Virus record (IMG/VR): IMGVR_UViG_3300043410_001663
Span: 4,391-68,390 of that record
Source: a virus
Direction: 5' to 3' (one strand)
DNA length: 64,000 nt
The stretch's first letter is position 1. The number at the start of each line of letters is the position of its first letter. Below the pieces are notes generated by a model that did not search any database, was not told where the DNA came from, and was given only the letters and a program-made list of their open reading frames with translations. The position numbers and the translations under genes were made by a program. Below are positions 2,893 through 26,400 of this stretch, piece after piece.

Positions 2893-2894
2893 TT

Positions 2895-3293: not shown

Positions 3294-3295
3294 GT

Positions 3296-3574: not shown

Positions 3575-3583
3575 GCTATCTCC

Positions 3584-4036: not shown

Positions 4037-4042
4037 AGATTA

Positions 4043-4115: not shown

Positions 4116-4127
4116 ATAGGCTCATAA

Positions 4128-4138
4128 GAATTACCCAT
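4128..4138 (-). promoter_or_regulatory. Putative late promoter motif ATGGGTAATTC
   Basis: Same motif recurs upstream of late genes at 13504, 15861, 52427, 62465 and on the plus strand at 34089. Confidence 0.6.
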
Positions 4139-4180
4139 AAAAAGAAAGAAAAACGCCCTGCTTTTTAGGGCAGGGCGTTT
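4139..4180 (-). terminator. Rho-independent terminator after the major capsid gene
   Basis: AAACGCCCTGC/GCAGGGCGTTT hairpin followed by a T-rich tract on the minus strand. Confidence 0.8.
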
Positions 4181-4215
4181 AACTGGCTGGGATCCGCCCA
4201 GCCTCGGGGCCTCAA

Positions 4216-5133: not shown

Positions 5134-5151
5134 GTGCTACTTCCTTTCTTG

Positions 5152-5745: not shown

Positions 5746-5772
5746 TGTTTTTGGTTCCTTTTTGGTTGTTGA

Positions 5773-6321
5773 TTAGAACCGCGTCAAAGCCGCGGCCCGG
5801 TTGGCTTCTTTCTCCATCTCCAGCATGCCACCCTCAAGGATCGAACGTCCACCCTTGCCTGCTTCTGCCGCCGAGCGTACGTTGGCCGTAACATTACGCT
5901 GGTGCTCAAGCGGGTCTTCAAGGTGCAACATCCGCATGACTTCTTGATAGATGTCTTCGGGGATCTTGAAAAGAACCATCTCATTACAAGAGACACAACC
6001 TTCAAACTTGCCTGAGCTCATCTTGCCAACGTTTTCAAAGCCTTTTCCGAGTTCGGCGGCTTTAACGGGCTCATAACCCAATGCGATGCGTTTGTCGATT
6101 GAATCGTACTGGTTGGTTGTTGACAACCAGCAGAGGTGCATCCCCGGGATTACTCCGTGAGGGATGTCCGGTAGCGCGGTGTTGGCCCATTTGTCCCGAA
6201 AAGCCTCCAGCCTTTCACGCCGCACTACTTCATCAGGCGACAGGCTTGCCTGGCGCTCTTTGATTTCTTCTACTCGGTCCTGCAGACGATCGTCCAGGTC
6301 CCGTGAAATTCGTTTGTTCAT
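5773..6321 (-). CDS. Conserved head-module hypothetical protein
   Basis: Between scaffold and capsid genes; GYEPV motif. Confidence 0.7.
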   Translation of the reverse strand: MNKRISRDLDDRLQDRVEEIKERQASLSPDEVVRRERLEAFRDKWANTALPDIPHGVIPGMHLCWLSTTNQYDSIDKRIALGYEPVKAAELGKGFENVGKMSSGKFEGCVSCNEMVLFKIPEDIYQEVMRMLHLEDPLEHQRNVTANVRSAAEAGKGGRSILEGGMLEMEKEANRAAALTRF

Positions 6322-6325
6322 TTAT

Positions 6326-7318
6326 TTACCCCTTGTTTGCACGGTCAAAATCAGCATAGCGGCGGATCGCCTTGGCGCGTTTCTGCGGGTCGTCCCACAT
6401 CCCTGCGTCCTTCAATGCCTGCACTCGCTCACGACTCAGCGTGAATGTGTTCTTGGGGTTCGCACCACCACTCACATCCGCGCGGCCCGTCGAGGTGCCA
6501 CTTCGGCGGCTACGACTGTTCGTTGCCCCCGCCTTGCCCGTGTACCGATGAGGTAAACGCTCTTTCAGTCGGTTGTCCAGCTCGTCCCAGTACTCCGGGT
6601 CCGAGGGGTCCCAACCCTCGCTGGCCAGTGCGTTGTCGATGATCTTAGCGATCCGACTATCCACGTCCTCACCACTCGGGTCATACCAACTATTACTCTG
6701 CAACCAGTTCGTCGCGTTCTTCTGAACCGACGACGACACCGGGTTCGGCACGTTGTTACGGGGGCTCTTGGCCTCCTCCAACTGGCGCTGCTTAACAATC
6801 TGCGCCTGTGCCAATCGATTCTTGGACTCATGGTACTGGTCCATGAACTCCATCTGTCCGTTGATGTCGCCGGCCTGTGCCGCTTGCGTCATCTTCATCT
6901 TGGCGTACTCGACTCGAGTCGCCTCGTCTTCGATCATGCGATCGATCTGAGCGATCTGGAAGCTCGCCGCGGTGTTCTCCACCTGCGCCAGTCGCTTTGC
7001 CAACTCTTCGTTGCGTCGCTCCAGGGCACTGATCTTGTGCTTGGCGCTTGCCTCGCGCTGCTTGTTCAGTTCCTTCTTGAGCTTGCGCTCCTCGCGACGC
7101 GCGGCGCGTAGCGCCTCACGGTCCTCATCGCTGTCGTCGTCACCCTCGCCGTCGTCGCCTACCTGGCCACCCTCAGCGTGGTTCTCGACCTCTTCATCAC
7201 CCTCTTCGCCCTCTTTGAACGGATCGGGTGCGTCCTCAATGGCTGCGAGCACCGTACCGTCGGTCTGCTCTTTGATCGCCACTTCTTCTTGCTGCTCTAG
7301 CTTGTCAATAGGTTTCAT
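6326..7318 (-). CDS. Capsid scaffolding protein
   Basis: Acidic N-terminus, long coiled coil, position between portal and capsid genes. Confidence 0.7.
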   Translation of the reverse strand: MKPIDKLEQQEEVAIKEQTDGTVLAAIEDAPDPFKEGEEGDEEVENHAEGGQVGDDGEGDDDSDEDREALRAARREERKLKKELNKQREASAKHKISALERRNEELAKRLAQVENTAASFQIAQIDRMIEDEATRVEYAKMKMTQAAQAGDINGQMEFMDQYHESKNRLAQAQIVKQRQLEEAKSPRNNVPNPVSSSVQKNATNWLQSNSWYDPSGEDVDSRIAKIIDNALASEGWDPSDPEYWDELDNRLKERLPHRYTGKAGATNSRSRRSGTSTGRADVSGGANPKNTFTLSRERVQALKDAGMWDDPQKRAKAIRRYADFDRANKG

Positions 7319-7868
7319 TCAAAACCTCCACTTTATTGCCTTTTGATAAATTTGCTTTTGCTGGAAGCAATTGCAAATTCCACGGTACATGTAATCCACT
7401 TACATTGCCGCCTTGTAAAGGAACAATATGATCTACATGCATGCTCCAAGGAAAAATCTTAGACAGCATTTCTGCTGCATAGTACCAATCCTTGATTGCT
7501 CCAAGCTGCTCTTTGGAGAGCCACTTAGGAGTCCTTTTAATCCTTTCGGAACGCCTTTTAGCGGTCCCTGCCGCGACTGCGGCCGGATTATTTTTTCGCC
7601 ACTGCCTAGTCAATTGATTGGCTAATTCAGTGTTTTGCTCTCTCCAGAGATTAAACTTCTCTCGAAGCTCTTCTCTATTTTTTGTCAAGTATGAATCCCG
7701 AATATTTTTAATTTTTTCGGGGTTCTCATTGCGATAGCGTGCGCCGTTCTCCAGCTCCCGTTCTCTGTTGGCTTCGTAATACTCTTTACGCTTCGCCTTC
7801 AGTTTCTCAGCGTTCTTTTCGCGATACCTCTTTTGGGCTTCGCGTTGGCGCTGCGTTTTATCACTCAT
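7305..7868 (-). CDS. HNH homing endonuclease
   Basis: HVDHIVPLQG...GLHVPWNLQLL...NLSKGN motif; AT-rich; overlaps both neighbours. Confidence 0.85.
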   Translation of the reverse strand: MSDKTQRQREAQKRYREKNAEKLKAKRKEYYEANRERELENGARYRNENPEKIKNIRDSYLTKNREELREKFNLWREQNTELANQLTRQWRKNNPAAVAAGTAKRRSERIKRTPKWLSKEQLGAIKDWYYAAEMLSKIFPWSMHVDHIVPLQGGNVSGLHVPWNLQLLPAKANLSKGNKVEVLNETY

Positions 7869-8296
7869 TCAACAAAAGCTGGCATCATCGTGCGAGCAAC
7901 ATCAAAACTATCAATTTTGCAAATCACTTCGCGATCTTGAAGAATGATAAAAACAACTTCCCCGTCACCATGTGGCACTGCCCAACGATCCCCTCCGTAC
8001 TTGATCACACGGACCAAATCACCTGGATCAGCCCAAGCGCCTTCGGGCCAAGGCTCCAGTGTGCTCATGTCTCGATAAGCCAATGGGCCCGTCTTGATCA
8101 CCTTTGCGACTACTTCATTCCATTTTTGGGTGGCTTTGGTTTCCGAAACCAACAAAATGCCGCCCTTGCTCAGGTCTTTGGCTTTTCGCAACTGAACAAC
8201 AATTCGGTTGCCTTGGGGTTGTACGCCACAGTCGAGTTCGGGAAAAACTTCTTCTTCCGTACGACCGTCAACTTCCACTTTATGAGCAAAATCCAT
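7865..8296 (-). CDS. groES: GroES-like co-chaperonin
   Basis: PQGNRIVV...SKGGILL...GDLVRVIKYGG...ILQDREVI matches the Cpn10 pattern. Confidence 0.8.
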   Translation of the reverse strand: MDFAHKVEVDGRTEEEVFPELDCGVQPQGNRIVVQLRKAKDLSKGGILLVSETKATQKWNEVVAKVIKTGPLAYRDMSTLEPWPEGAWADPGDLVRVIKYGGDRWAVPHGDGEVVFIILQDREVICKIDSFDVARTMMPAFVE

Positions 8297-8481
8297 TACT
8301 CTTCTTCCTCGTCCTCTTGCAGGACACCGTTTATGATTTCCAGCGCCTCTCTCAGGCCCTGGCCTCTTCCGATGAGCCGGTTGTATGAGTCCCAGCTATC
8401 GGCTCCATTCAAGGCCGCGAATTCCAGTTCTTGGATCACGTCCTTGATTTTGAAGACTGTCTGATATATCGGATCTTTCAT
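8296..8481 (-). CDS. Hypothetical protein
   Basis: 61 aa ORF with RBS, coupled to groES. Confidence 0.65.
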   Translation of the reverse strand: MKDPIYQTVFKIKDVIQELEFAALNGADSWDSYNRLIGRGQGLREALEIINGVLQEDEEEE

Positions 8482-8542
8482 ACGAAAGTCCTCCTGTATA
8501 ACTATAAATACATAAGCGGGGGCCTATCCGCCCCTTTTGTAC

Positions 8543-8740
8543 TTATTTTTTCTTCGCGTCGTACAGGCCCTTGCTGTTGACGGCCGGCACCTGAGCCAGT
8601 GCGATCTTGGCGTTGTTGGCCTGCTTCGAGCCAGAGGGGCCCTTCTCAACCGCTTGGCCAGGGCCGCCGGCGTAGCCGGGCTTGCCTGTCACCTTGTAGT
8701 TTTTACGAAAGCCCATGTCGGGGATTTGACTTGCCATCAT
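8543..8740 (-). CDS. Small basic hypothetical protein
   Basis: Overlaps portal stop (ATGA); Lys/Gly-rich. Confidence 0.6.
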   Translation of the reverse strand: MMASQIPDMGFRKNYKVTGKPGYAGGPGQAVEKGPSGSKQANNAKIALAQVPAVNSKGLYDAKKK

Positions 8741-11607
8741 TGTTCTCCTGTTGGTGATGGTTGCATCTTCGCCAGTTCGGCTTGATGCTGTTGCTGTGAA
8801 CTCTGTGCCTGCTGGTCAGCGGCCTGTTGTTGTGCCGCCATGCCTGCCTGGTGCTGCTGCTGTCCGCTTTGGTTCTGCATGTCGACCAGCTGCTGCTGTG
8901 CCGCCAGCGCGCGTTGGTGTGCCTGCTCTTGGTCGCGGCGGACCTCCTCCAGGCCATGCTTGCGCAGGTCTGCATGGGCCTGCGCCTCCGCCTCGAGCGC
9001 CGTCTGGTTCTGTTGGTGCTGCTGTGTCAGCTGCAGGTTGTCGAGCTGGGCGTTGGCCGCAATGGCCGCCACGCGCTCTTTGGATGCGTTGTTGATGTCT
9101 GCCAGTGCGATCTTGGCCGCGTTGTCCGCGTTGGACAGCTCGCGGTCCAAATTCATGCGCGCCATGACCTCGGCCATCTTGGCCTCCATGTCGCGCATTT
9201 TGTCCTGCATCGCCGCCTGCATCTTGGCCTGCTCCAGCTGGAACTTGGCCTCTGCCTCCTTCATCTTGCGCTGTGTCTCGGCCTGCTGTGTCTGCATGAT
9301 GACGCCAGCCGCCGGGTCCGCGGCCAGGGCAGCCTGCTGCATCTGGGCCTGACGTGCCTGCTGCATCTGCTGCGCCAGCTGCTGGATGATCGGGTTGATC
9401 GCCTGGAACTCCTGCTGAGAGTCCTGGGCCACCAACTGGGCCGCCATCGCCAGCGCCTGTTGGGAGTCTGCGTCGAGCTTGCGCTCCTCGTGTAGCTTGA
9501 ACGCGTCCTCGCCGCCAGCCGCCTGGGAGACATAGCCACGCATCGACTGCAGGTAGTGCAGCGTCAGGTGTTGCTTCAGGTGCTCCATCATGAGCGGGAG
9601 GATGCTCGCGCCAATGAGCGGGCTGCCACCGTACGCCGGGTCCAGCATGTACGCCAGGTGGACCTTGATGTGCTCGATGTGCTCCTGGTCCGGGAAGGCA
9701 GCCGCCGGGCTGCCCATCGTCATCTGCACGTTCTCGAGCGCGGGGTTGCTCTCGTTGGCTCCCTTCGGGTCCGGCAGGATGGCCTGGATGTCGGGGACCT
9801 TCATCAATTTGAGGATGCGCAGGTTGGCCTCGCGGACGTTGTACATCTGCGGGTTGGCCTGGGCCAGCTGCAACACGGCCTGCGCCTGTGTCAGTCGCTG
9901 GGTCTCGCTGAAGATGTTGGGGTCGGAGACCAGGCTGATGTCCGAGTTTTCCTTGAAGTCCGCGACCTCGACCTTGGCACCGGACTGGTTGTCCATCTCG
10001 TCCAGGTACCAGTAGTTGATACGGGACAGGATCTGCATGCTCTTGACCTGGCTGCGGTGCAGTCGGGCGTGAATGCTCGAGAAGACCTTGCTGCCCTGCT
10101 CGATCAGCGCCTGGGTCGTTCCAACCGGGGCGTTGCTGTTCGCGTCAGCGATACGGCCCTCGCTTGTCTTCACCACGCCCTTGGCTGCGTCCGTCAGCCA
10201 CCCCAGCAGCTGGAACAGGACACTCGACGGCGGGTTGAACGGCATCGGCATCGCCAGCTTACGGATGTCGTCAACACCCGGCGCGCCCTCGATCTCAACC
10301 ACCTGCGTCGGCTCCACTCGGTCAGTCTGGCCGCCCATGCGGCTGTTCTTGAGTTTGAGGAGTGTCTGGCTGTTGTTGATGTGCGCGGCGTCCATCAGCG
10401 CGCGCAGGGATCCGGTCAATGCTGCCGTCAGTCCACCAATCAGGTGCGGCATGCCGATAGCGTATGCACCGCGCCAGGGGATGAACTTGTACTCTGTAAT
10501 CCAGTCCAGCTTACGGCGGCGCTCGTCGCCAGCATCCCAGTTCCGGTATAGCGCCACGACCTTCTCGGTCAGCTCGTCGATCGCCATGATGTACGGCGCG
10601 CGCTCGCCACCCGTCTCCGGGTCATCCTCCAAACGCAGGAAACACGTCACCTCGTACACGCGGCGCAGACCGTCCACGTTCTTGACCGGCTCAGAGACGC
10701 CCTCGATCTTGTCGTTGGCCTTCTGGGCCTGGGTCACCTTCTCAGTCGGGACCTCCTGGTCAAAGAAGTCGATGTCACGGTACTCACCCTGCTCGATGCG
10801 CTGCTCGAACATGTCGTGGGTGATGTCCTGGATCTCAGTCGCGCGCGGCGCGCTGTAGAAGTTGGTCGACCCAAAGGGGAGGATCATGTTGTCGATCGGG
10901 ATCCACTCAGGCACCGGTCGACGCAAATCGCGATCAAAGCGCCACTTCAGGTACTGAGAGCCGCCCAGCGGCAGCTGGGTAAAGAGCTGCTCCATCTCGT
11001 CGCGGTACTCTTCAACCTGGTCAGAGAGCTGCCAGTTCAAGAAGTTCGTCTTGCGGCTGGCAATCGCCTGGCGCTGCTCGTTGGCCTCGCCCTTGATGTC
11101 ACTCTTGATCAGGCCATCCGATGGCAGCAACTCTTTGGACGCGTTGGCTGCGAAGTCAACGCAGGCCTCTGCCATGATCGGATGCACCACCTTGGACGCG
11201 CCCTCAAAGTTGGCGCCACCGGGTGCATCATTACCCAGGCCGGTACGGCGCAGGCCCTCTTCGTATTGCTTGTCGCGCTCCTTGCGGGAGTCGATGTCGA
11301 TCTCAATCAGCTCGAGGTAGTCGTTCGAGAGCTTGTCCAGCACGGACTCCTCAAAGACTTCTGCCAGGTTCGCGTAGAACTCAGGCGCCTCGGCCGGCTT
11401 CTTGCTCTCGGTGTAGTTGACGACAACCGAGCCATCCTCCAGCTCGATCACCTCCTCCTCAACGTCCTCAACGTCCAGGTCGAGGGCCTCGGCGATCATC
11501 TCCGTCTCTTTTTCGACGTCGGGCTCGCCCGTTTTCTCGTTCTCTACGAACGACAAGGCAGACAAATTGCCGCCTTGTTGAAGAGGAATTAAAGGTTGTT
11601 GTGCCAT
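8737..11607 (-). CDS. Portal protein with long Gln-rich C-terminal coiled coil (P22-like barrel)
   Basis: 956 aa, downstream of terL; FEGASKVVHP, KFIPWRGAYAIG, PVGTTQALIEQG motifs. Confidence 0.85.
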   Translation of the reverse strand: MAQQPLIPLQQGGNLSALSFVENEKTGEPDVEKETEMIAEALDLDVEDVEEEVIELEDGSVVVNYTESKKPAEAPEFYANLAEVFEESVLDKLSNDYLELIEIDIDSRKERDKQYEEGLRRTGLGNDAPGGANFEGASKVVHPIMAEACVDFAANASKELLPSDGLIKSDIKGEANEQRQAIASRKTNFLNWQLSDQVEEYRDEMEQLFTQLPLGGSQYLKWRFDRDLRRPVPEWIPIDNMILPFGSTNFYSAPRATEIQDITHDMFEQRIEQGEYRDIDFFDQEVPTEKVTQAQKANDKIEGVSEPVKNVDGLRRVYEVTCFLRLEDDPETGGERAPYIMAIDELTEKVVALYRNWDAGDERRRKLDWITEYKFIPWRGAYAIGMPHLIGGLTAALTGSLRALMDAAHINNSQTLLKLKNSRMGGQTDRVEPTQVVEIEGAPGVDDIRKLAMPMPFNPPSSVLFQLLGWLTDAAKGVVKTSEGRIADANSNAPVGTTQALIEQGSKVFSSIHARLHRSQVKSMQILSRINYWYLDEMDNQSGAKVEVADFKENSDISLVSDPNIFSETQRLTQAQAVLQLAQANPQMYNVREANLRILKLMKVPDIQAILPDPKGANESNPALENVQMTMGSPAAAFPDQEHIEHIKVHLAYMLDPAYGGSPLIGASILPLMMEHLKQHLTLHYLQSMRGYVSQAAGGEDAFKLHEERKLDADSQQALAMAAQLVAQDSQQEFQAINPIIQQLAQQMQQARQAQMQQAALAADPAAGVIMQTQQAETQRKMKEAEAKFQLEQAKMQAAMQDKMRDMEAKMAEVMARMNLDRELSNADNAAKIALADINNASKERVAAIAANAQLDNLQLTQQHQQNQTALEAEAQAHADLRKHGLEEVRRDQEQAHQRALAAQQQLVDMQNQSGQQQHQAGMAAQQQAADQQAQSSQQQHQAELAKMQPSPTGEQ

Positions 11608-11620
11608 ATGAAAGAGGTCT

Positions 11621-13294
11621 TTAACGTGTTAGTGCGCGCTTGGCCATGCCACCAAAGGGCAGCATGTTCAGGGACTCCAGGGCGGCGCTCGGGTACTCTC
11701 CCTTGCCGATGTAGTGCCCAATGTTGGCCGCGGAGATGGGTCCATACGCCAGCGCGCCGGGCGCGGTCGTCATGGCCGCGACATCCATCGCGCCAAAGCC
11801 GCCGGGGATCGCGCTGGACGCGCCACCGAACGCTGTCTGTGACGCACGGCGTGCGATCGGGCGGCGGATGCCAACTCGCTCCAGGAAGTCTTGACCCGTG
11901 GCAGCCAGCCGCTCAGACGGCGACGGCTTGTACTCCTCCATGCGGGGCTGGCGCTCCATCGCGCCCATGTACGCCGCACGGTCGGCCATGGTGTTGAACT
12001 GCGGGCCGGCGGAGAACAAATCCTCCAGCTGTTGAGGGGTCGGCTGTGTTCGCCCACCATCTGCGTATCCATGCACCATCAGCTGGGCCTGCATGTCGCG
12101 GGGGCTGGGGATGAACCCGCCGGCCGCCTTCTTGACCGTACGCTTATCAGTCAGGCTTTCCAGGTCCCACCCCTGAGCGAACGGTTGGCGTGTGTCTGCC
12201 GTCGTGTCCAGCAGGTAGTCACGCTTGTGCATCGCATCCCAATCGGCTGGGTTTCTACCCCACACGCGCTCGGGCGCGCCGGCTGCTCGCATCTGAGCCT
12301 GCCAATCCAGGTACTCTTGGGTCACCTTGCCAGCCTTGGGGTCCATCATCGGGCGCTCACCGATCGGGTTAACGCCCAGGTAATTGTGTTGCGCCACGTT
12401 ACGGTCGGCCAGCACCGCGTTGATGATGTCCTCCTGGTCGGGCTCGATGCCTCGCGCCAGGAAACTCTGACGGGCGCGCTCGATCTCTGCCTTGAGCGGT
12501 CGGCTTGTCTTTTCACCTGCCTGCGGGTTCAACGCCATGACCAGCTGCTCGCGCAGGTCGCCCACCTGAGCGTTTTCGATCGGGCCCGCGGTCTCCGCAA
12601 ACGGGGCGCTGGCGCTGCGCGGGCCCTCTGCCAGGCCGTACGTCTCACCAGAGACCTTGGACAGTCCGCCGGCCACGTCGTCCGCGCCCTCGGCTGCGTG
12701 CTGCATCGCGATCAGCTCCTCGGTCGAGGGGACTACACTGCGCAAGTTGGTGCGGTTGGATGTGCGGCCGACGTTGGCCATCTGCACGAACTCATCCGGA
12801 CGTGCCACGACGTCCGGCTTGGGGTCGTACAGCTTCTTGCGCGCCTTGCGCGTCTGCGGGTTGACCTCGAACTGGTTGCCTACCGAGAACCCCTGCGCAC
12901 GCTCGGGTGTCGTCAGCTGGCCCGTCTTGGGGTCGATCATGCCAGAGTAGGCGCGGCCGAACTCGTCGACAAATTTGTTGGCGTTGGGCTCTTGCGCCGC
13001 CAGGCGGGCCATGGTCGGCTGGCGCACCGGCGTCTCCGGGACACCGGCCAATGCCGGGTTCTTACCAGCCAGGAAGTGGTCCTCCAACGACTTGACCTCG
13101 TCCGCTGTCGGGTTCTTGCCCGTCGCACGACGGTAGTTGGAAATTGCGTTCTTGATGCCCGTCTCAAACTGCTTGAGCGCCTGCGAGCGGGCCAGTCCGG
13201 TCAGCGCCGCGCCAGGTACGCCACCACCGCCCAAATGCGGCAGCCCTGCCTGCTCGAACATCATCTGCGTCGGTGTCTTGATTGGGTTAAGCAT
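11621..13294 (-). CDS. Hypothetical, probable internal virion protein
   Basis: 557 aa between terL and portal; carries KAAGG and YADGG motifs. Confidence 0.65.
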   Translation of the reverse strand: MLNPIKTPTQMMFEQAGLPHLGGGGVPGAALTGLARSQALKQFETGIKNAISNYRRATGKNPTADEVKSLEDHFLAGKNPALAGVPETPVRQPTMARLAAQEPNANKFVDEFGRAYSGMIDPKTGQLTTPERAQGFSVGNQFEVNPQTRKARKKLYDPKPDVVARPDEFVQMANVGRTSNRTNLRSVVPSTEELIAMQHAAEGADDVAGGLSKVSGETYGLAEGPRSASAPFAETAGPIENAQVGDLREQLVMALNPQAGEKTSRPLKAEIERARQSFLARGIEPDQEDIINAVLADRNVAQHNYLGVNPIGERPMMDPKAGKVTQEYLDWQAQMRAAGAPERVWGRNPADWDAMHKRDYLLDTTADTRQPFAQGWDLESLTDKRTVKKAAGGFIPSPRDMQAQLMVHGYADGGRTQPTPQQLEDLFSAGPQFNTMADRAAYMGAMERQPRMEEYKPSPSERLAATGQDFLERVGIRRPIARRASQTAFGGASSAIPGGFGAMDVAAMTTAPGALAYGPISAANIGHYIGKGEYPSAALESLNMLPFGGMAKRALTR

Positions 13295-13484
13295 CGTAGT
13301 CTCGCGTTGCTAAATTTTTGTTGTAGTTCTCTGGGTCGCCACCCTTGACGATATCGTTGAGCATGTCCCGGTAGCCCCGACGCACGCTGCCCCACTCGGA
13401 GAACGACTTGCCACGTGCCCGCATCATGCGACACATGTCGCAGCTGCACTGCCGGATCTCTTTCACGTGACTCGAAGTCTCCAC
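13287..13484 (-). CDS. Small CxCxxC protein
   Basis: AGGAGG RBS; CSCDMC; late-promoter-like motif at 13504-13514. Confidence 0.6.
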   Translation of the reverse strand: METSSHVKEIRQCSCDMCRMMRARGKSFSEWGSVRRGYRDMLNDIVKGGDPENYNKNLATRDYDA

Positions 13485-13533
13485 GATATCGTCCTCCTAT
13501 CACGAATAACCCATAATCTGAGGGGCGGACGCC

Positions 13534-14979
13534 CTACGCAGCGTATGGGTTATACGCGCGGCGTCGTGCGATGTCGTCCGAGTGCCCATAGTCACGAGAC
13601 GGCAGCGGGTCCAGCTCGAGCCAGCCTGAATCCCTGAGCACTCGCAAGGCCTGGGACAGCGCGTCCACGTAGTCATCGTGGCCCTTGGCCTCTGGAAAAG
13701 AACAGACCTGCCGAATGAAGCGCTTGGCCCAGGGGGCCACCTCTCCAGGGTTCTCGGGGTCCTCCGGGACATAAACGCGGCCCTTCGCGATGAGCGGCGC
13801 CACGATGTTCATCCGCTGGACCTTGTCCGCGCGGCCCGGGTTGTAGCTCATCACCGGCAGACCGGCCTGTTGGAGCTCCTGGAGCAACGAGATACCCGCC
13901 GATTTGTCTTCCATGAGGATCAGGTCCGTCTTTTTACCCTTCGCGAACGTGTTATCGGCGCCGTACACGACCTCCTTGTAGTCATCCGTCACTTTTCGGC
14001 GCAGTTCCGGGTAAGAGAGGTGGTTGTCCCATGAATCCATGAGCAGGGCGCACATTCCGCCGTCCATTTTCTCAAAAAGCCCCAAAACAATGCACGCCGT
14101 CGGGTCGTTATGGGTCTTTTCGCTCGTCGCGGGGTCGTATGACGCCAAAACGTACTCCAATTTCGGGGTCTCCTTCTCCGCCGGCCACATCTTGAACCAC
14201 TTCCGCTTCACGATACCCGCATTTTCGGGGTCCAGGATCTCGCCATAGATCTCCTGCTTGCCCAGATCGGTGCCTTCGTACGTCTCCAGCTGCTTGAAGA
14301 AGGTCGGGGAGAGGTTTTCCTTGTTGTCGTACGAGCTGGCGCGGCTGACGTACACGTCGCCGCCCACTTTTCCCTCGTTTAGGTCCGTAATTAGCTCGAG
14401 TGGCTTCGGAGTCGTGGTGATAATCGTCTGGACCCGCTTGATTCGGGGGTCCCTCAGACGCAAAGTGAACTGGATCTGGTCGTACGCGTCGTCAATGTAC
14501 TCAAACGCGCACAACTCGTCCATCCAGGCCCCGTGCCACTGTGTTCCCCGGAAGCGTTCCGGCTCAGATGCCGGGATTCCGCGGATCATTGAGCCGTTTT
14601 TCAGCGTCAACTCGAACAGCGACTTGTTGTAGTCCTTGATCAGCGACTGCGGGATAATGTTCAGTAAGCCTGAATCCCCCTCAAAACACGTCGCCCGGAT
14701 GTCGTTTGAGGTCGGCGCCGTCACCAACCACCGCGTGTGGTCGTAAATCGCGGCCCTCTCACCGATCCAGTTGCTCGCGGTGTGCGTCTTGCCCGATCCA
14801 CGACCAGCCAAGAGCAAGAATGTGTCATATTCCCCATCGTCCGGCTCCTTTTGGTGGGGCAGGGCGGTCATCGCCCACCTCACCCGCCACAACGCCAGGT
14901 CAAGTTGCTCCTTCGGCCAACCCTTGTTCTTCTCCGCGAACTCCTTCAAGAGCTTCGTCTGTTGCGCATTCATAGGCAT
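13534..14979 (-). CDS. terL: Terminase large subunit
   Basis: Walker A AGRGSGKT, Walker B AWMDE, TTTP coupling motif, nuclease YDPA...HDDYVDA. Confidence 0.95.
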   Translation of the reverse strand: MPMNAQQTKLLKEFAEKNKGWPKEQLDLALWRVRWAMTALPHQKEPDDGEYDTFLLLAGRGSGKTHTASNWIGERAAIYDHTRWLVTAPTSNDIRATCFEGDSGLLNIIPQSLIKDYNKSLFELTLKNGSMIRGIPASEPERFRGTQWHGAWMDELCAFEYIDDAYDQIQFTLRLRDPRIKRVQTIITTTPKPLELITDLNEGKVGGDVYVSRASSYDNKENLSPTFFKQLETYEGTDLGKQEIYGEILDPENAGIVKRKWFKMWPAEKETPKLEYVLASYDPATSEKTHNDPTACIVLGLFEKMDGGMCALLMDSWDNHLSYPELRRKVTDDYKEVVYGADNTFAKGKKTDLILMEDKSAGISLLQELQQAGLPVMSYNPGRADKVQRMNIVAPLIAKGRVYVPEDPENPGEVAPWAKRFIRQVCSFPEAKGHDDYVDALSQALRVLRDSGWLELDPLPSRDYGHSDDIARRRAYNPYAA

Positions 14980-15851
14980 ATCGGTAAATACCCCTCACTC
15001 ACTACCACCGTGTTGTTTGGGTTCTCGGTCTTGATGTAGATGCAGGGGCGTGGCTTGACCTCCTCCATCCGCTTGATGGTCCGGAACTCGTAGTAGAACT
15101 CTTTGCCGGTCGACGTCTGACCGTCAACCAGCTTCAAGAACGTCTTGAACTCAATGTGAAATTTATTTTGGCGACCGTGCTGCGTGATCTTGGTCGCGAC
15201 ACCCAGCGACTCGACCAGGTTCTGGACCTGGCGCAGGATCCCGTAGTCCCTGCTGTCAAAGAAGAACATCGCGTCCTTGGCCCGGAAGGTCCCGCGCTTG
15301 CTGAAGATGCCCCGCGCCAGTGCGAGCCTCTGCTCGAACGACCCAAAGAAGTACTCCTCGGGGATGGTCCGCGGGAGTGTCGGGTACTTCTCGATCAGCT
15401 GTCTGGTGATGTGGGTCTGCTTGTTCTGCCTGTTGCGGCTGCGCTCACAGATCCACTGGCCGAGGATGTATGGATCCACCGGCAGCTCCCTCTCCGGCAT
15501 CATGAGCGGGCGGCAGTTGATGATCCGGACCAGCTTCTCCTGTTCCATCAGCATCTCCGGGCTCATCGGTTGAGCCTCGAGCTCCTGGTGCCTGGACTTC
15601 TTGCGGGTCCACTTCCGCAAGATCTCGGTCTGCTTGTAGGTAAGAGCAGGGATTCCAGTGCGGCCGTCTACCACCAGCGTCAGGTCGTCCCTCATCCAGA
15701 GCTTGTAGCACGCCCGCGGCGTGAACTCCTGAGTTGAGACCACCTTCGTCGGTAGGCCATCGTATGAAAACACCGTATCCCCCGACTCGATAAGCGCCGC
15801 TGGTTTCCATCCGGTAACCGTAGGGACCGGGGTCCGTGCGTCGAATCCCAT
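14970..15851 (-). CDS. Free-standing intein-like (Hint + degenerate LAGLIDADG) protein lacking splicing residues
   Basis: N-terminal GFDARTPVPTVTGWK...GDTVFSYDG.PTKV, central IPEEYFFGSFEQRLALARGI, C-terminal PCIYIKTENPNNTVVVSEGYLP resemble intein blocks. Confidence 0.7.
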   Translation of the reverse strand: MGFDARTPVPTVTGWKPAALIESGDTVFSYDGLPTKVVSTQEFTPRACYKLWMRDDLTLVVDGRTGIPALTYKQTEILRKWTRKKSRHQELEAQPMSPEMLMEQEKLVRIINCRPLMMPERELPVDPYILGQWICERSRNRQNKQTHITRQLIEKYPTLPRTIPEEYFFGSFEQRLALARGIFSKRGTFRAKDAMFFFDSRDYGILRQVQNLVESLGVATKITQHGRQNKFHIEFKTFLKLVDGQTSTGKEFYYEFRTIKRMEEVKPRPCIYIKTENPNNTVVVSEGYLPICL

Positions 15852-15935
15852 GTCTGAATAGAATTACCCATTTCGGTGGCTGATTGCGCCCTTTATCCAG
15901 GGGTTTATTACAACATGCACTATAGTGCCGAGCGG

Positions 15936-16041
<106 letters not shown>

Positions 16042-16066
16042 TCACAAACAGCACTTTTTCCTTATA

Positions 16067-16079
16067 AATCAACAACTTA
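16067..16079 (+). promoter_or_regulatory. IHF binding site
   Basis: AATCAACAACTTA matches WATCAANNNNTTR exactly. Confidence 0.6.
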
Positions 16080-16264
16080 GCACGTCTCGCCTTGCTCTCC
16101 GGCCGATTCGTAAGGTAAAAGTATTACTTTTTTGCTGTGATATGCAAAAAATATATAACACAGGGGGATTTATATGAACTTGCTGTCTGTGGGGCCCCCC
16201 GCCCCGCCTCGCCGGATGGGACCCAAACTGGGGTGATGGGGGTCGTGTTGCGCAAAAACAACAA

Positions 16265-16494
16265 AGCAAGAAGCGTGCCACTTTTTCCGCAAGCAAGAAC
16301 CGTGCCAACCTGCTGACTGACCGGTCAGTCAGTAAGGCGCGGCGATCCTGGCACGAACATTGCAACGAAGCAAGAAGCGTGCCAACCCAGACTGGCACAC
16401 TGCTTGCTAATAGCAAGGACCGTGCCACCGCGGCCAAGCAAGGACCATGCCAACGTGGCGAGTGGGCGGCGCAGGCCAAGCAAGAACCATGCCA
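16265..16494. promoter_or_regulatory. Array of eight sigma54 (-24/-12) consensus sites
   Basis: TGGCAY-N5-TTGCW on minus at 16265, 16292, 16369, 16412, 16437, 16479 and on plus at 16349, 16393. Confidence 0.85.
16313..16332. promoter_or_regulatory. Perfect 20-bp palindrome (TetR-type operator-like)
   Basis: CTGACTGACCGGTCAGTCAG is its own reverse complement. Confidence 0.55.
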
Positions 16495-16558
16495 ACGTGG
16501 CCAGGGCGACCCAGTTTGGTGCGCACGCGAGGCGCCGGTGAGGGGAGGGCGCCGCATA

Positions 16559-16574
16559 CTGTACAAACGCCCAG
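16559..16574. promoter_or_regulatory. LexA SOS-box-like site
   Basis: (TA)CTGTACAAACGCCCAG vs beta/gammaproteobacterial CTGT-N8-ACAG, one mismatch. Confidence 0.45.
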
Positions 16575-16589
16575 GTCACGCGGCAAGAG

Positions 16590-16669
16590 TTATCCACAGC
16601 TTATCAACAGGCCAAGTTATCCACAGGTTGTTCACATGTTATCCACAGGTTGTTCACATGTTATCCACC
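16590..16669 (+). promoter_or_regulatory. Cluster of seven DnaA boxes
   Basis: TTATCCACA at 16590, 16617, 16639; one- or two-mismatch variants at 16601, 16628, 16650, 16661; mostly 11-bp period. Confidence 0.85.
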
Positions 16670-16739
16670 GCGCCAGGTAGCAGGCCAACCCCCACCCGAG
16701 ATGACCAGAATAGTATCAGCAACACACCAGGAGAACAGC

Positions 16740-16931
16740 ATGAAGACAACCAAGACCAGCCAAGGCGCATACAGTGTGACGGGCCACACCAAGGCCGGCG
16801 ACCTCGTCCAGTACGAGGTGGCACGCAACGGCCACGGATGGTCCGTCGATCTGGTGTATGGCAACGGCGCAGTGTTCAACATGCTGTACCCCACCAAGGC
16901 CGAGGCCATCGCGGCCATCGCCGGCCAGTGA
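16740..16931 (+). CDS. Early hypothetical protein
   Basis: ATG after repeat-borne CAGGAG; MKTTKTSQG... Confidence 0.75.
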   Translation: MKTTKTSQGAYSVTGHTKAGDLVQYEVARNGHGWSVDLVYGNGAVFNMLYPTKAEAIAAIAGQ

Positions 16932-16983
16932 ACCCCCACCCGAGATGACCAGATTAGTATCAGCAACACACCAGGAGAACGAC

Positions 16984-17223
16984 ATGATCGCAAAGAAGCA
17001 CATCAAGGCCATCAACGAACTGCTCAACAGCGAGTCCGCCGCGCAGTCCCTCATCGACCGCAGGGCCAGCGACCCAGGCATGACCCGCGAGCGCATGGCC
17101 CACTGGGTCGACCACGGCCGCCGCGCGGCCACCGAACTGATGGCCACGTACGGCATCCAGTCCAGCGCCGGTTCGATCGAGTACTGGGAGAGCATGGCGA
17201 TCCACTTCCCGCTCGCCGCCTGA
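16984..17223 (+). CDS. Early hypothetical protein
   Basis: ATG after repeat RBS; stop lies in the next repeat. Confidence 0.75.
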   Translation: MIAKKHIKAINELLNSESAAQSLIDRRASDPGMTRERMAHWVDHGRRAATELMATYGIQSSAGSIEYWESMAIHFPLAA

Positions 17224-17267
17224 ACCCCCACCCGAATTGACCAGATTAGTATCAACAGGAGAACGAC

Positions 17268-17728
17268 ATGACCACACTGACCCAAGCCACCTACGAGCGC
17301 ATGAACGACCTGCGGACCCAGGTCCGCAACGACCTGATGCGGGTCCAGCGCATGTTCAACAAGAACCCCAACGCCACCAACTGGGAGGTCTGCACCCGCG
17401 CCATGCTGGTGTTCCAGCAGGTGGACTGGGCCTGCCGCTCGAACATAGTCGACCACGTGGCGCTCCTCCTCGACCTGGACCACGCCACGGTCGGCGAGTG
17501 GGGCGACATCATCACCCGCGCCACCCTCGGGATGTCGGTCGCCAGCGCCCTCGCCTGAACCAGGGGCACGCCATGAAGACGATCACCATCCTGACCTACA
17601 CCGCCGGCCTGCTGGGCCTGACCAAGCACTGGCAACCGCTGTGCGACCTGACCTGGGACGAGTACGTGGCCCTGGCCGCCCGCCGCCCTGGTGAGGGCAC
17701 CACGTGGCGCGCGGTGTTCAAGGCCTGA
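17268..17728 (+). CDS. Two early hypothetical proteins (17268-17558, 17573-17728)
   Basis: RBS-linked ORFs with high GC3 between repeats 3 and 4. Confidence 0.7.
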
Positions 17729-17780: not shown

Positions 17781-18274
17781 ATGCAGACAGCCTACATCAA
17801 CCTGATCAAGCACGCACTCAGCGAGGGCCACACCGTGTCGGTGTGGGACGGCGAGGAGTGGCAGGTCAAGCGGTCCACCAGCCTGCGCGCCATCACTGAG
17901 GCCGTGAAGTCGGTCGAGGAGGCCACGTTGCGCATCCGCAACCAGGACGGCGACGTGGTGGCCTGGGCCCTGGTCTCAGCGTACGGTCTGGCACCGGACG
18001 AGACCGTGATCGACTACGGCGACAACGACTGGACCAACGCGTGGTTCGTGAACTACAGCAAGACCCAGGAGGCCTGACCATGCGGACCAACATCAACCGG
18101 CCCTGGGTGGCCCACGTGGACGACGAGCGGGACATCGGCAACAGCGTGATCGTGACCCTGGCGCCGGGATGGTTTTTCAAGGGCACCGACGAGGGAGTGC
18201 GCGGGTACGATACCATGCGCGAGGCCAAGGCGGACACCGTGCGCGCCAACGTGGAGAACCCCCACCCGAATTGA
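17781..18274 (+). CDS. Two early hypothetical proteins (17781-18077, 18080-18274)
   Basis: RBS-linked ORFs; the second ends inside repeat 5 (...NPHPN*). Confidence 0.7.
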
Positions 18275-18309
18275 CCAGAATAGTATCAGCAACACACCAG
18301 GAGCACACC

Positions 18310-19053
18310 ATGACCAAGCCCACCGGATTCACCATCTACCAAGGTCCCAGCATGATCGACGGCACGCCCATCGTGGCCATCGCCCTCCTCGGGTCATCGA
18401 ACCGCAAGACGGGTAACATGGTCCAGACCTATATCCTGCGCCAGGACATGCGTCCCGTCCAGGCGGTCCAGACCGGCGCGGACGTGGCCATCTGTGGCGA
18501 CTGCAAGCACCGCCCGTCCAACGGTGGCGCGTGCTACGTGGTCGTGGCCCAGGGCCCGACCGTGGTGTTCAAGACCTGGGTGGCAGGCAAGTACCCCACA
18601 GCATCCGCCACTGAGGTCGGCCAGATGGTCGCAGGCCGCATGGTCCGACTGGGCACCTATGGCGACCCCGCCGCCGTGCCCGCCGATGTGTGGGAGAACC
18701 TGACGGCCCTGGCCGCAGGCCGCACCGGGTACACCCACCAGTGGCGCAACCCGGCCCTGTCGGCCGACCACCGTGCGCGCATCGTGCGCCTGTGCATGGC
18801 ATCGGTCGACAACGCACTCGAGGCCCAGGAGGCCCGCACCAGTGGCATGCGTTACTTCCGCATCCGCACCGCGGACGAGGTGGTCGGCCAGGGTGAGTTC
18901 GTGTGCCCGGCCAGCGCCGAGGGCGGCATGCGCAAGCTCTGCACCACCTGCGGCGCCTGCAACGGCACGACCAAGGCGACCGGCGCCAGCCCGGTGATCA
19001 TCGTCCACGGCAACAAGGCCAGCCGGTTCACCACCCAGCGGGCGGCGGCCTGA
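18310..19053 (+). CDS. Cys-rich early protein, possibly Fe-S/metal binding
   Basis: CGDCKH, CYV, RLGTYGDP, GYTHQW, CPA, CTTCGAC motifs. Confidence 0.75.
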   Translation: MTKPTGFTIYQGPSMIDGTPIVAIALLGSSNRKTGNMVQTYILRQDMRPVQAVQTGADVAICGDCKHRPSNGGACYVVVAQGPTVVFKTWVAGKYPTASATEVGQMVAGRMVRLGTYGDPAAVPADVWENLTALAAGRTGYTHQWRNPALSADHRARIVRLCMASVDNALEAQEARTSGMRYFRIRTADEVVGQGEFVCPASAEGGMRKLCTTCGACNGTTKATGASPVIIVHGNKASRFTTQRAAA

Positions 19054-22896: not shown

Positions 22897-23409
22897 ATGG
22901 CACTCACACCTGATCAGGAAAAAGAGCTCGCGGCGATGGCCCAGGCCGGCGACGAGGAGGCCCTAGAATCGTTTTTTCAGGCCAACCGGGGCCTAGCCCT
23001 GTACGTGGTCCAAAAAATGCCCCAGTGGGCCGTAGAATCGGCCATGACCCGTGATGACCTGATCCAGGAGGCCTACATCGCCCTGGTCCACGCGATCCAG
23101 ACCTGGAAGCCCAAGAAGCGATTCGCGACCTATGCCCAGAAGGTGATCATGGGCCGGGTGCGGCGCGCGGTGGAGAACGGGAGCCAGATGATCAGGATCC
23201 CGGTACCGGTCCAGGAGGACATCCGCAAGATCAAGTCGGCCCAGTCCAAGTTGCACCAGCTACTGGGACGTGAGCCCTCACTGACCGAGGTGGCCCAACT
23301 ACTGGATGAGCATACAGACTGGGTGAAGGATAGAATCGTGGTAAGCCAGCGCCAGCCGGTGAGCCTGGACGCGTACAAGCGGGACAACCTATCGGAGGAG
23401 TCGGAATGA
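22897..23409 (+). CDS. Sigma70-family sigma factor, regions 1.2-3 only (no region 4)
   Basis: LTPDQEKELA..AQAGDEEA, DDLIQEAYIAL, RFATYA, IRIPV, LGREPSLTEVA, PVSLD, then stop. Confidence 0.85.
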   Translation: MALTPDQEKELAAMAQAGDEEALESFFQANRGLALYVVQKMPQWAVESAMTRDDLIQEAYIALVHAIQTWKPKKRFATYAQKVIMGRVRRAVENGSQMIRIPVPVQEDIRKIKSAQSKLHQLLGREPSLTEVAQLLDEHTDWVKDRIVVSQRQPVSLDAYKRDNLSEESE

Positions 23410-26400
23410 AGCTATATGACGTGCCGCGTAATACGCGGGTTAGGGTGGTGGAGACGGGGGAGGAGTACAACTTCGACCACATCGACGGGATGTATTCCTA
23501 CTGCACCGACGACGAGGGCAACGTGGCCCACCTAGTCGCCTGGGAAGACGTGGAGGTGGTCCATGATCGTTGAAGCCGCACGACAGGCGCTGTACTTGCT
23601 GGAAGAATTTGTTGATGACCCGAGATGCCAAGGACAAATTGATGCCACCAGCATTGCCCTACGCCAAGCCATAGAGCAGGCTGAGAAGCAGGAGCCGGTG
23701 GCGTGGTTTTCGCCCTCTGGTAATTTGTATCGCTCTCGGTATCACGCAGTCGCTAACGGAGAACAGGTTGTAACCCCACTCTACACCAACCCACCCACAG
23801 CACCTGCGCAGGAGCCGATTGCCTGGATTGAGCGAGACATGATGTGCGATGAGTTTGATCCAGCCAGCGTGACCTGTAAAAAGTCTGACACAGCAACCGA
23901 TGGATGGGAGTGGGTTCCGTTGGTTCTTGCCACAGCACCTGTGCAGGAGAAGAACAATGGATAGTTTTCTTTTGTGGGTAATCATGATCCTGCTCGCGTA
24001 TATCGGTGATACACTGCGCAACATGCACAACACGATCAAGGAGAAGTTATGAACCACGCAGACATCCAGCGCCCTATCGCAACGGGGGTCACGTCACCCC
24101 GCGAGTGGAGGGACCTCACGCAGAACCAGATCGAGTACATCCTCTCGGAGTACGACATGTTCTACCAGAACGACATCTTCGTCACCGACGTGATGGAGAT
24201 CATCGCCACCGTGCGTCAACTGTTGAAGGAAATGAACACGTGAGCATGATGGCCATCAAGGAGGTCCTCCAGCACGGGCCGCTGTCTGTCAGGGAGATGG
24301 TTGAGCTGTTGGGCCAGGCGCGCGTCGCGCTGAACAAGAGCCTGCGCCGGCTGAGAGACCGCAAGCAGGTCTACATCTGCGCCTGGGAGCGCCAACCGGA
24401 GGGCCACCAGGGTGCGTTCGTGCCGTACTACACGCTCGGCGACGAGCCCGACGCGCAACGCCCCAAGGCGCTGACGGTCTCGGAGCGCAACAAGGAATAC
24501 CGGCGGCGTCATCAAGCCGCTATCTCAGCAAGACGCTACCCTCACCTGCGCGAGACGCTGGGTGTCTGGGCAGGACTAGGAGGACGATGATGAAAGCAAT
24601 TGTCAAACGCATCAACCGCATGACGATCGAGGAGTTTGCTACCCAGCACGATCTGATACTACGGGTAACCGAGCGAGAAGCCGCGTATGCAGCTCCCGGG
24701 AAATGGTACTGCTATTTCCCAGAGATCGAGATTAAAAAAGGGGGCGTGCTCGAGAGCGGTTCAGGTGACGGTGACACAATCAATGACGCCATCTTCAACT
24801 ACTGCGAAATCCTAAGCAACAAGCGGGTGGTGTACAAAGCGTTCACGCCCAGCCGCGCGGAGTTTACAATGCCCGAGCTGACACCCATCTACACACTGGA
24901 GGAAATATGAGTCTGGACGTTTACCTCGAGCAGTCGGTGTTCACCCGCAACATGACGCACAACCTTGCAGAAATGGCTGACCACGCAGGCGTATATGATT
25001 GCATCTGGCGCCCCGATGAGAACAACATCTACGAGGCCAGCGAGCTGGTCACTCCCTTGGCCAAGGGGCTGTCGCTACTGCTGAGTGACCCCGAGATGTT
25101 CAAGCGATACAACCCCGAGAACGGGTGGGGCTCGTACGATACCCTTGTCCGTTTCGTGGCGGAGTACCTCCAGGGTTGCATCAACCACCCAGACGCACGT
25201 GTGAGGGTCAGCCGATGAAACGAGCACTCAGCGCGACATTACTGACCCTATCCCTGTACGCCAACGCGGAGTTCATGACGGGCCGCACGCTGCTGGCCAG
25301 GATGAACGGGGACGCCGCGGATCGTGCCAACGCCGTGGGCTACATAGTGGGGGTCGCAGATACACTGATGGGCGAGGTCAGCTGCCCTCCCCACGGCCTC
25401 ACATCGGGCCAGTTAGCCAGTGAGGTCCGCAAGGTCCTGGAGGAGAACCCGGACAAGCTGTCTGTCAGCGCGGACGTATTCGTGCACGCGGTTATGCTAA
25501 AATGGCCGTGCAGTAGTGGCAGAAAGGTTACCGCATGAAACGAGAAGAGTTAGAGCAGATCGCCAAGATGGCCGGGGCGCTGTTGGTGTATAATCCACAC
25601 GGCGGCCCCATCATGGCCGACAACCTCGACCTGATGAAGTTCTCAACGTACCTCGAGGGGTGCCTGAGACTGGACGTCATCAGCGAGATCATGGAGCTGG
25701 GTCCGCAGGCGAGCCTGGAAGACATTCTGGTTCACATCTCAAGGGGATAAAGATGATTTTCACAACGGGTATCGGTTTGATTTGCGCCGGCTGGTGGCTG
25801 GCGTGGTTCTTTGGCGACTGGCACAACATGGAGCGCAACTGGTGCGACAAGATTGGCGGCGCGCTGTTCGGCATTGGCCTGGGGCTGTCACTCAGCTCGA
25901 TGATCATCGCCGCGATCAAGTACATGCCATGAGCGGGAACCTGATCATATTGACGGGCGTGATCTACGCCTATGTCGCCGTTGAGCAGGGGCTCAAGGGC
26001 AACATGGGGATGCTGATCGCATACGCCGGGTACGCGTTCGCCAACGTGGGCCTCTACCTGATGGTGACGAAATGAAGTTCAGAAAGAAGCCAGTAGTTAT
26101 TGAGGCCACGCAATGGTTTAGATACGGGGATCATCCGAAGGTTAAGATTCGATATAAACACGCAGATGATGATGAGCATTGGAATCCAACCATTCCAACT
26201 GGTGAAGGCTGGATAAAAACGCTAGAAGGTGAAATGCTTGTTACCCCGGGCGATTGGATCATCACCGGCGTGAAGGGGGAGCACTACCCGTGCAAGCCCG
26301 ACATCTTTGAGGCAACCTACGAGAGGGTCGAACAATGAAGATCGAGATATGCGGCGAGTGTGCCAGCAAGCTGGTCGCGCAGGACCTCAAAGAGGTCTAT

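Follow-up and report, generated by a model that had tools for sequence, protein, structure and literature searches.

A non-coding array of sigma54-type sites between the packaging and early genes of a freshwater phage, and its exchange for NtrC-type sites in relatives

The control region between the packaging and early genes

The DNA analysed here (the window, 64,000 nucleotides) comprises bases 4391-68390 of the 68,390-bp virus record IMGVR_UViG_3300043410_001663, a freshwater phage genome rated complete, and our subject is a non-coding stretch at 16060-16670 of the window that holds an array of eight sequences matching the promoter consensus of sigma54 (RpoN). Gene blocks, assigned from PHROG and Pfam matches, diverge around it. 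To the left, a leftward virion and packaging block (232-15851) encodes tail fibre, capsid/protease, portal (8737-11607) and TerL (13534-14979); to the right lies a rightward early and replication block (~16740-43185) with a sigma70-family factor, a primase-helicase, a helicase, an exonuclease, a gp2.5-type single-stranded DNA-binding protein (SSB), a ribonucleotide reductase and PolA, among many small proteins without assignment (dozens of the small early proteins match no known family), and a second leftward virion block follows beyond it. The divergent packaging/structural and early genes are separated by a gap of ~900 bp (15852-16740), of which 16060-16670 is the core and in which the array lies. 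No lysogeny genes were seen for the phage in the searches made. The “direct terminal repeat” of the record is an overlap of 127 bp between both contig ends, which is the size of an assembler word; the genome was therefore assembled into a circle, and its contig ends need not be physical ends.

The longest open reading frame of the core, 165 codons on the minus strand, was rejected as a gene, since its protein is less conserved among relatives (58-60% identity) than the DNA itself (73-77%, with 44-74 gap positions), in relatives whose TerL is 96-97% identical. An Rfam scan gave nothing close to any gathering score, nucleotide searches of named phages found no match for the region or for two other viral arrays, and a scan of the region for sigma70-type promoters returned two matches versus 0.9 expected, neither of them convincing.

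All eight matches to the sigma54 core TGGCAYGNNNNTTGCW (≤1 mismatch) in the window fall within 16265-16494, six on the minus and two on the plus strand (Table 1), where 1.6 matches were expected and none of 100 shuffled sequences reached eight. Over the whole 68-kb genome, eight of the nine core matches are those of the array, and a control with the reversed pattern gave none. As a yardstick for the bases beyond the core we used the extended sigma54 consensus. A logo built on 113 unique sites, taken from the window and its relatives, shows a C or T before TGG in 81% and a G after TGGCAC/T in 84% of the sites; spacer positions 3-4 favour TT, and the second base past TTGC is A or T in 95%. These flank and spacer preferences fit the motif TGGCACnnTTnTTGC obtained in vitro for the RpoN holoenzyme (PMC8743547), a motif of E. 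coli. Judged from the letters, the match to the sigma54 promoter consensus is one that extends beyond those used for finding the sites.

The array is accompanied by sites for other host proteins and by palindromes. An earlier note, made from the letters of this DNA, had described the stretch as gene-free and filled, where early and late genes diverge, with sites for host proteins, and both the positions of the motifs and the gene blocks on either side support that description: the IHF consensus, the three palindromes or dyads (at 16117, 16246 and 16313), the eight sigma54 sites, the LexA-like box and the seven DnaA boxes are all present where it had placed them. The IHF site keeps its position and orientation in the relatives L003 and L006, and the perfect 20-bp palindrome is identical in both and absent elsewhere in the viral contigs searched; in relatives a different palindrome class, AGTRAGYRCTYACT, takes its role. 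DnaA boxes with ≤1 mismatch number 19 in the window versus 8.0 expected, five of them within the 80-bp row, which lies ~580 bp from the A/T tract and arose in part by recent tandem duplication of 22 bp; two boxes are present in L006 and none in L003. The LexA-like box is the one element of the earlier description that we would drop, being absent from the two closest relatives and at chance level (21 one-mismatch sites in the window versus 23.7 expected, and no exact CTGT-N8-ACAG).

Left of the array lies a dyad-symmetric A/T tract with an A+T content of 94% over 15959-16020, whose 29-nucleotide A-run (15981-16009) is the only homopolymer of ≥10 nucleotides in the 64 kb. In relatives the A-runs measure 10-43 nucleotides, and inverted arms of 27-75 nucleotides, whose sequence differs by lineage, enclose the A/T tract at all seven loci examined; those of the L036 lineage consist of TATCCACA repeats, which resemble DnaA boxes. 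Public contigs and unitigs end exactly at the A-run. The tract is a candidate for an unwinding element or for the core of back-to-back promoters.

Element C, between the IHF site and the array, could be aligned and is retained in 13 diverse loci. We rejected both a structured RNA (-1.9 kcal/mol in RNAalifold without a covarying pair, hence no consensus fold, and no Rfam match) and a small gene (its 20-codon open frame is not conserved) as explanations. It would be a DNA site, possibly a packaging site. At the right border a block of ~50 nucleotides, AACCCCCACCCGAG...TAGTATCAGCAAC...AGGAGAAC, stands in three copies (16687, 16931 and 17223, together spanning 16687-17290), each preceding a small open reading frame. 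In what is probably the source sample, two strains differ exactly at these cassettes, one contig joining 16743 to 17218 through 734 other letters.

Table 1. Sequence features in and around the control region (positions in the window)
Feature	Position	Strand	Remarks
Dyad-symmetric A/T tract	15952..16021		arms 15952-15978 and 15995-16021; left of the array
IHF consensus AATCAACAACTTA	16067..16079	+	one of three WATCARNNNNTTR matches in 64 kb
Palindrome AAAAGTATTACTTTT	16117..16131		retained in the close relatives L003 and L006
Element C	16165..16245	+	invariant TGTGGGGCCCC at 16188, variable G+C-rich stretch, GGGACCC at 16218, GGGG at 16230
TGTTG-N8-CAACA dyad (TGT-N12-ACA)	16246..16263		...AAAAACAACA retained in relatives; TGT-N12-ACA is a P2-type site pattern
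Sigma54 site 1	16265..16280	-	TGGCACGCTTCTTGCT
Sigma54 site 2	16292..16307	-	TGGCACGGTTCTTGCT
Perfect 20-bp palindrome CTGACTGACCGGTCAGTCAG	16313..16332		within the sigma54 array
Sigma54 site 3	16349..16364	+	TGGCACGAACATTGCA; face-to-face with site 4
Sigma54 site 4	16369..16384	-	TGGCACGCTTCTTGCT
Sigma54 site 5	16393..16408	+	TGGCACACTGCTTGCT; face-to-face with site 6
Sigma54 site 6	16412..16427	-	TGGCACGGTCCTTGCT
Sigma54 site 7	16437..16452	-	TGGCATGGTCCTTGCT
Sigma54 site 8	16479..16494	-	TGGCATGGTTCTTGCT
Conserved GCGCACGCGAGG motif	16521..16532	+	right of the array; variants at the same place in relatives
LexA-like CTGT-N8-CCAG, CTGTACAAACGCCCAG	16559..16574	+	one mismatch; chance level, outside the element
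Seven DnaA-type 9-mers	16590..16669	+	single orientation, five of six gaps 11 bp; perfect TTATCCACA at 16590, 16617 and 16639; with one or two mismatches TTATCAACA at 16601, TTGTTCACA at 16628 and 16650, TTATCCACC at 16661
First early cassette	16687..16754	+	conserved upstream block, ribosome-binding site and ATG at 16740; right border

Conservation in relatives and exchange of sigma54-type for NtrC-type sites

Relatives were collected with the gene at 14970-15851, which led to four viral contigs, and with TerL, which led to 76 metagenome loci at 73-96% identity; 64 loci include the TerL start, and 35 with ~2.1 kb or more upstream of it were used for motif counts, in which the zone of 1.6 kb upstream of TerL was compared with the rest of these loci. 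The sigma54 core occurs 91 times in the zone (1.67 per kb) versus 7 times elsewhere (0.025 per kb), the IHF consensus 41 times (0.75 per kb) versus 19 (0.068 per kb), the DnaA box with ≤1 mismatch 39 times (0.71 per kb) versus 58 (0.21 per kb) and the palindrome AGTRAGYRCTYACT 90 times versus 2; at least two exact sigma54 sites are present in 22 of the 35 loci. The same layout recurs, with an A/T tract containing a homopolymer, an IHF site, element C and an array. The motif classes are retained while the DNA between them diverges, to 73-77% identity even in the closest relatives, which is the pattern that the earlier note had proposed to look for.

The spacing within the sites is strict: when the spacer of the core was varied in the zone of the relatives, N5 gave 90 hits and each of N2-N4 and N6-N8 gave 0-1. 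The distance between neighbouring 15-mers varies, and their directions alternate. A fixed spacer within each site and a variable distance between sites argue for one two-part reader per 15-mer and not for a dimer spanning a palindrome.

In relatives without a sigma54 array, arrays of TGCACC-N5-GGTGCA occupy the same position. This sequence is the NtrC consensus (PMC4987338, Table 1; PMC8743547), and its matches (≤1 mismatch) number 35 inside the zone and none outside, with N5 as the only spacing. After dereplication, 20 of 30 zones carry sigma54-type sites only, seven NtrC-type sites only, three neither and none both. In a TerL tree built from 29 rows (the near-duplicates L037, L039, L054, L060 and L075 were left out, as were L059 and L073) the NtrC type stands in two separate, well-supported places, which implies at least two switches. 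Mean G+C content is 45% in the NtrC-type (8 loci) versus 54% in the sigma54-type loci (20 loci), so the type of array may follow the host. No NtrC-type site was found in the control region of the phage itself, the sole match in the window at ≤2 mismatches (10432) lying outside it. That two partners of one host pathway should occupy one and the same position in these phages is hard to explain unless the readers of the sites are host proteins.

Other classes of sites were seen at or near the same position. Arrays of AGTRAGYRCTYACT (e.g., L043:1200-1540, L076:3000-3300 and L036:2700-2950) are interleaved with sigma54- or NtrC-type sites, and in L014 (positions 1-110; TerL 88%) ATACCC-N4-GGGTAT repeats, words that also flank the A/T tract of the window, stand in place of the array; a phage-specific class of sites can thus occupy the position as well. 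Fur-box-like 19-mers adjoin the IHF site in the relatives of lower G+C content L027, L036, L266, L268 and L309, and occur four times in the zone versus twice elsewhere in the 35 loci, too few for a claim. The closest relatives with a name, found by protein comparison, are Caudoviricetes sp. MW202545.1 (TerL 53%) and Caulobacter phage RW and its kin (~41%), and they are without the layout; the genome ends of phage RW are not described in the passages of PMC11053796 that were consulted.

Geometry of the sites, their occurrence in other viruses and the neighbouring genes

The arrangement of the sites is not that of ordinary promoters. Among facing neighbours 44 of 45 pairs are spaced 18-23 bp start to start, which places their -12 elements 3-8 bp apart. 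In 17 of 21 arrays the site next to the early genes faces away from these genes, and in 16 of 21 that next to TerL is directed toward it; of all 90 sites, 59 are oriented to the A/T tract and TerL and 31 to the early genes. In mixed relatives, NtrC-type sites follow the -12 element at a distance of 2-11 bp on its downstream side, where transcription would start, and in seven of nine NtrC-type loci no GG-N10-GC candidate was found within 1.8 kb, even at low score. The phage genome has no match to Sigma54_activat or Sigma54_DBD. Of what makes a sigma54 promoter, the -24/-12 elements, the fixed spacing and the flank preferences are there, whereas an upstream enhancer or activator and a correctly oriented downstream transcription unit are not, although the 20-bp palindrome, ~50-100 bp upstream of both plus-strand sites, could by its position be an activator site.

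Known phage and bacterial systems resemble this arrangement in part. Sites for a host nitrogen-stress regulator also occur in cyanophage genomes as NtcA sites, which have been described as single, promoter-associated and serving a sigma70-type activator, unlike the dense, promoter-less arrays seen here. With the enteric glnAp2 type of NtrC enhancer and sigma54 promoter our loci share TGGCAC-N5-TTGC, TGCACC-N5-GGTGCA and a nearby IHF site, but in the phages the two motifs are mostly mutually exclusive between lineages, and in loci with both, the NtrC sites are found immediately past the -12 element, not ~100 bp upstream. A host sigma54-type promoter sequence is likewise carried by Pseudomonas phage YuA (PMC10914365, citing Ceyssens 2008); there, however, one promoter stands alone and its start is mapped, whereas here 4-12 consensus sites stand in both orientations, often face-to-face, without an activator site and mostly without a downstream gene.

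Since facing pairs are so regular, we searched for TGGCAC-N5-TTGC-N3-8-GCAA-N5-GTGCCA in other genomes. In 596 Gb of bacterial and archaeal genomes the pair is present in 39 stretches, where ~3 would be expected by chance (an arithmetic estimate); 36 of the 39 are without an array, and the three with arrays resemble stray viral DNA. These three (L103, L127 and L131) have arrays of 4-5 sites; L103, at one end of a 200-kb contig from a Methylovulum bin, is adjoined by an open reading frame of a PHROG family, L127 and L131 resemble the family of the window, and all are probably viral DNA inside genome bins. In 2.9 million viral contigs, by comparison, the pair occurs in at least 120 stretches. 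Among the viral matches listed there are 83 sequence clusters, 51 with at least three and 34 with at least four sites, and five loci that share sequence with the family of the window. One array (L139) sits between divergent consensus sigma70-type promoters and another (L165) just upstream of a sigma70-type promoter that precedes a small-terminase gene. Perfect NtrC-type sites in tandem were found in 62 viral stretches (48 clusters). One viral contig of 36.5 kb carries an array of sigma54 pairs at both ends (L161 and L170); either the array is part of a terminal repeat or the assembly broke within it.

Some genes near the control region deserve mention. Directly upstream of TerL, and overlapping its start by 10 nucleotides, is an open reading frame of 293 amino acids (14970-15851, minus strand) with a weak LAGLIDADG_3 match, which is 68-69% identical among relatives with TerL at 96-97%. 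Its tblastn matches are scattered over functionally unrelated proteins (terminases, DnaB, Cas4/RecB nucleases), as expected of an intein-derived, homing-endonuclease-like gene. In the early block, a conserved first early protein (18169-19053) has no PDB relative and falls with DUF7227/GP88-like viral clusters in the Atlas, the sigma70-family factor (22897-23409, plus strand) shows regions 1.2, 2 and 3 and no match for region 4, and a small protein (25215-25538, plus strand) matches Rap1a, a type VI secretion immunity family (E 1e-13).

Possible roles of the array

The sites, their conservation, arrangement, exchange for NtrC-type sites and spread among viruses are observations; what binds them, and to what effect, is inferred. 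We read the control region, with a probability of about 0.42, as a cis-acting hub, probably including an origin, that would load host sigma54 polymerase, DnaA and IHF and would work by being occupied. Sigma54 is the sole bacterial sigma factor that holds promoters tightly yet silent until an ATPase acts, and after entry the host sigma54 polymerase might sit along the array in closed complexes that stay silent; DnaA would occupy the phased boxes and IHF would put a bend next to the A/T tract, where the DNA is likely to open. The occupied array could then act in cis, shaping or gating the neighbouring early promoters and the A/T tract, and the hub would be tied to the nitrogen-stress system of the host because NtrC-phosphate is the natural remodeller of sigma54 complexes. 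Action in cis is suggested by the position of the array between element C and the early genes, which was kept through both swaps, and by its interleaving with other palindromes in fixed units. Occupancy rather than firing is indicated by the facing pairs, the lack of an activator gene, the NtrC-type loci (seven of nine) without a promoter candidate, the NtrC-type sites just past the -12 element in mixed relatives and the sites nearest the early genes, most of which point away from these genes.

An origin within the hub is probable from the A/T dyad with its lineage-specific arms and the IHF site. Iteron-type origins (plasmid oriV/oriR) and datA of E. coli combine an A/T-rich tract, repeated sites, IHF and DnaA boxes with a second, distant array, and the architecture of an iteron origin is present here: an A/T tract flanked by repeats, IHF beside it, DnaA boxes and a second array at a distance. 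Unlike in those systems, the second array here would serve a sigma factor or enhancer-binding protein instead of the initiator. The primase-helicase at 28179-30497 (PriCT_2, D5_N, DUF5906) is a candidate, and only that, for the initiator.

Several points weigh against a hub of this kind. The origin is assigned by architecture alone, the presence of sigma54 in the host is presumed, and the early promoters that would be gated lack a candidate, given two sigma70-type matches versus 0.9 expected. DnaA boxes occur in some lineages only (none in L003), with a 3.4-fold enrichment per kb in the zone. Sigma54- and NtrC-type sites co-occur in L027 and in seven of the 62 viral loci with NtrC tandems. The bias of 59:31 in site direction would be more natural for real promoters than for occupancy, though it could also have arisen by tandem duplication, and the mutual exclusivity of the two site types is explained at least as simply by a decoy acting purely in trans.

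Such a decoy, a role that the earlier note had also suggested, heads the rivals, which we rank as decoy, poised promoters, operators of phage proteins and injected genome end, and we regard it as doubtful. Eight sites per genome copy would titrate scarce sigma54 (NtrC in the sister lineages, DnaA via its boxes), the nitrogen-stress/sigma54 programme and replication initiation of the host would be switched off, and the place of the array in the genome would be irrelevant. Sigma54 and NtrC are low-copy proteins, decoy sites reportedly titrate regulators in bacteria, and near-consensus sites in many copies, in a geometry of no use for transcription and in a phage without an activator gene, are what such a role would call for. 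The exclusivity of sigma54 and NtrC would represent two routes against one pathway, the NtrC arrays would need no promoter, and the pair would be expected where it is found, in at least 120 viral contigs (83 clusters among the matches listed) versus 39 places in the bacterial genomes. A pure sponge, however, needs neither a fixed position nor an ordered interleaving with other motifs and leaves the orientation bias without a reason; the gain for a phage from silencing an activator-dependent regulon is not evident, and single Fur-like and IHF sites cannot titrate abundant proteins, which argues for a hub that is at least partly cis-acting. Taken beyond this phage, the arrays may be widespread, virus-specific sponges that capture sigma54, alone or together with core polymerase, or else NtrC after a swap of target, and disable the nitrogen-stress/sigma54 programme by mass action. 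We consider this unlikely; if true, it would be the first natural virus decoy DNA against a sigma factor, and lineages would retarget it within one pathway, possibly with a change of host.

The sites might instead be real sigma54 promoters, poised and fired mainly leftward by NtrC-phosphate under nitrogen limitation or by an unrecognised phage activator, with transcripts that cross element C into the A/T tract and there open or prime the origin or start late transcription. The primary origin of T7 consists of tandem promoters and an A/T-rich region, and our phage has T7-like replication genes (gp2.5-type SSB, PolA, primase-helicase, exonuclease). The complete match to the promoter consensus, the direction of most sites and of most TerL-proximal sites toward the A/T tract and TerL, the IHF site close by and the precedent of YuA (PMC10914365) would all be accounted for. 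Pairs 3-8 bp apart cannot both hold polymerase, though, the phage is without an activator gene and its control region without an NtrC-type site, seven of nine NtrC-type loci have no sigma54 promoter, NtrC sites cover the would-be starts in mixed arrays, and leftward transcripts would have to traverse a 29-nucleotide A:T run, so that we find promoters rather unlikely. It is improbable that the sites are operators or iterons for phage proteins (an initiator, a repressor or the small terminase subunit) and merely resemble those of host factors. Lineage-specific repeats in the hub (the arms of the A/T dyad, AGTRAGYRCTYACT with 90 versus 2 occurrences, ATACCC-N4-GGGTAT in L014), the dozens of small early proteins without a known family and the nearness of arrays to terminase genes, here and in L165, would agree with it. 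Yet a chance resemblance to two partners of one pathway is not to be expected, the sigma54-type motif stays constant across 83 unrelated viral clusters among the matches listed where phage-specific sites vary by lineage, the strict N5 with variable spacing of the 15-mers favours a monomeric two-part reader such as sigma54, and no sigma54-like DNA-binding domain is encoded by the phage.

The earlier note had drawn a parallel to the injection-stop region of T5, suggesting that the array may mark the first-injected end of the genome. Host proteins bound there, such as DnaA or polymerase, would halt the incoming DNA, ratchet it in or protect it, along the lines of a proposal made for the DnaA boxes of T5. 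In that phage a long non-coding region has ~8 DnaA boxes, repeats, inverted repeats and palindromes, with DnaA as the proposed binder (abstract of 10.1101/866236), and it forms part of the first-injected repeat of T5-like phages. The parallel stands for a long non-coding region with a series of DnaA boxes near the first-expressed genes; it does not extend to the conserved class of sites, which is here of the sigma54/NtrC type, a type that the abstract does not mention for T5, with the DnaA boxes lineage-specific and the least conserved. The array does adjoin the early genes near the terminase gene, and several viral arrays lie at contig ends (L161/L170 at both). But the T5 region lies in a mapped terminal repeat and ours in a circular assembly whose repeat is the 127-bp assembler overlap; contigs of relatives that are nearly full-length start and stop at arbitrary points and have the array in their interior, the family does not conserve the DnaA boxes, and an end near the A/T tract would place the array before the early genes, where that of T5 comes after them. 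The ends of relatives' contigs were rejected as evidence for termini, as they pile up at the homopolymer and in repeat arrays like assembly breaks. An injected end is in our view very improbable.

A hub working by occupancy, as preferred here, would put sigma54 binding to use in a geometry unfit for normal transcription, a use that we did not find in the literature searched; nor did the open-access papers and preprints searched contain a description of sigma54 or NtrC site arrays in phage genomes. That the array is more than the curiosity of one genome is indicated by at least two swaps to NtrC, by the 83 viral clusters with the face-to-face pair among the matches listed and by the near-absence of this pair from 596 Gb of bacterial genomes. 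The arrays may give a handle on the ways in which phages from lakes poor in nutrients sense or disable the nitrogen-stress system of their hosts, and they would provide a simple sequence signature for locating the control and origin regions of uncultured phages.

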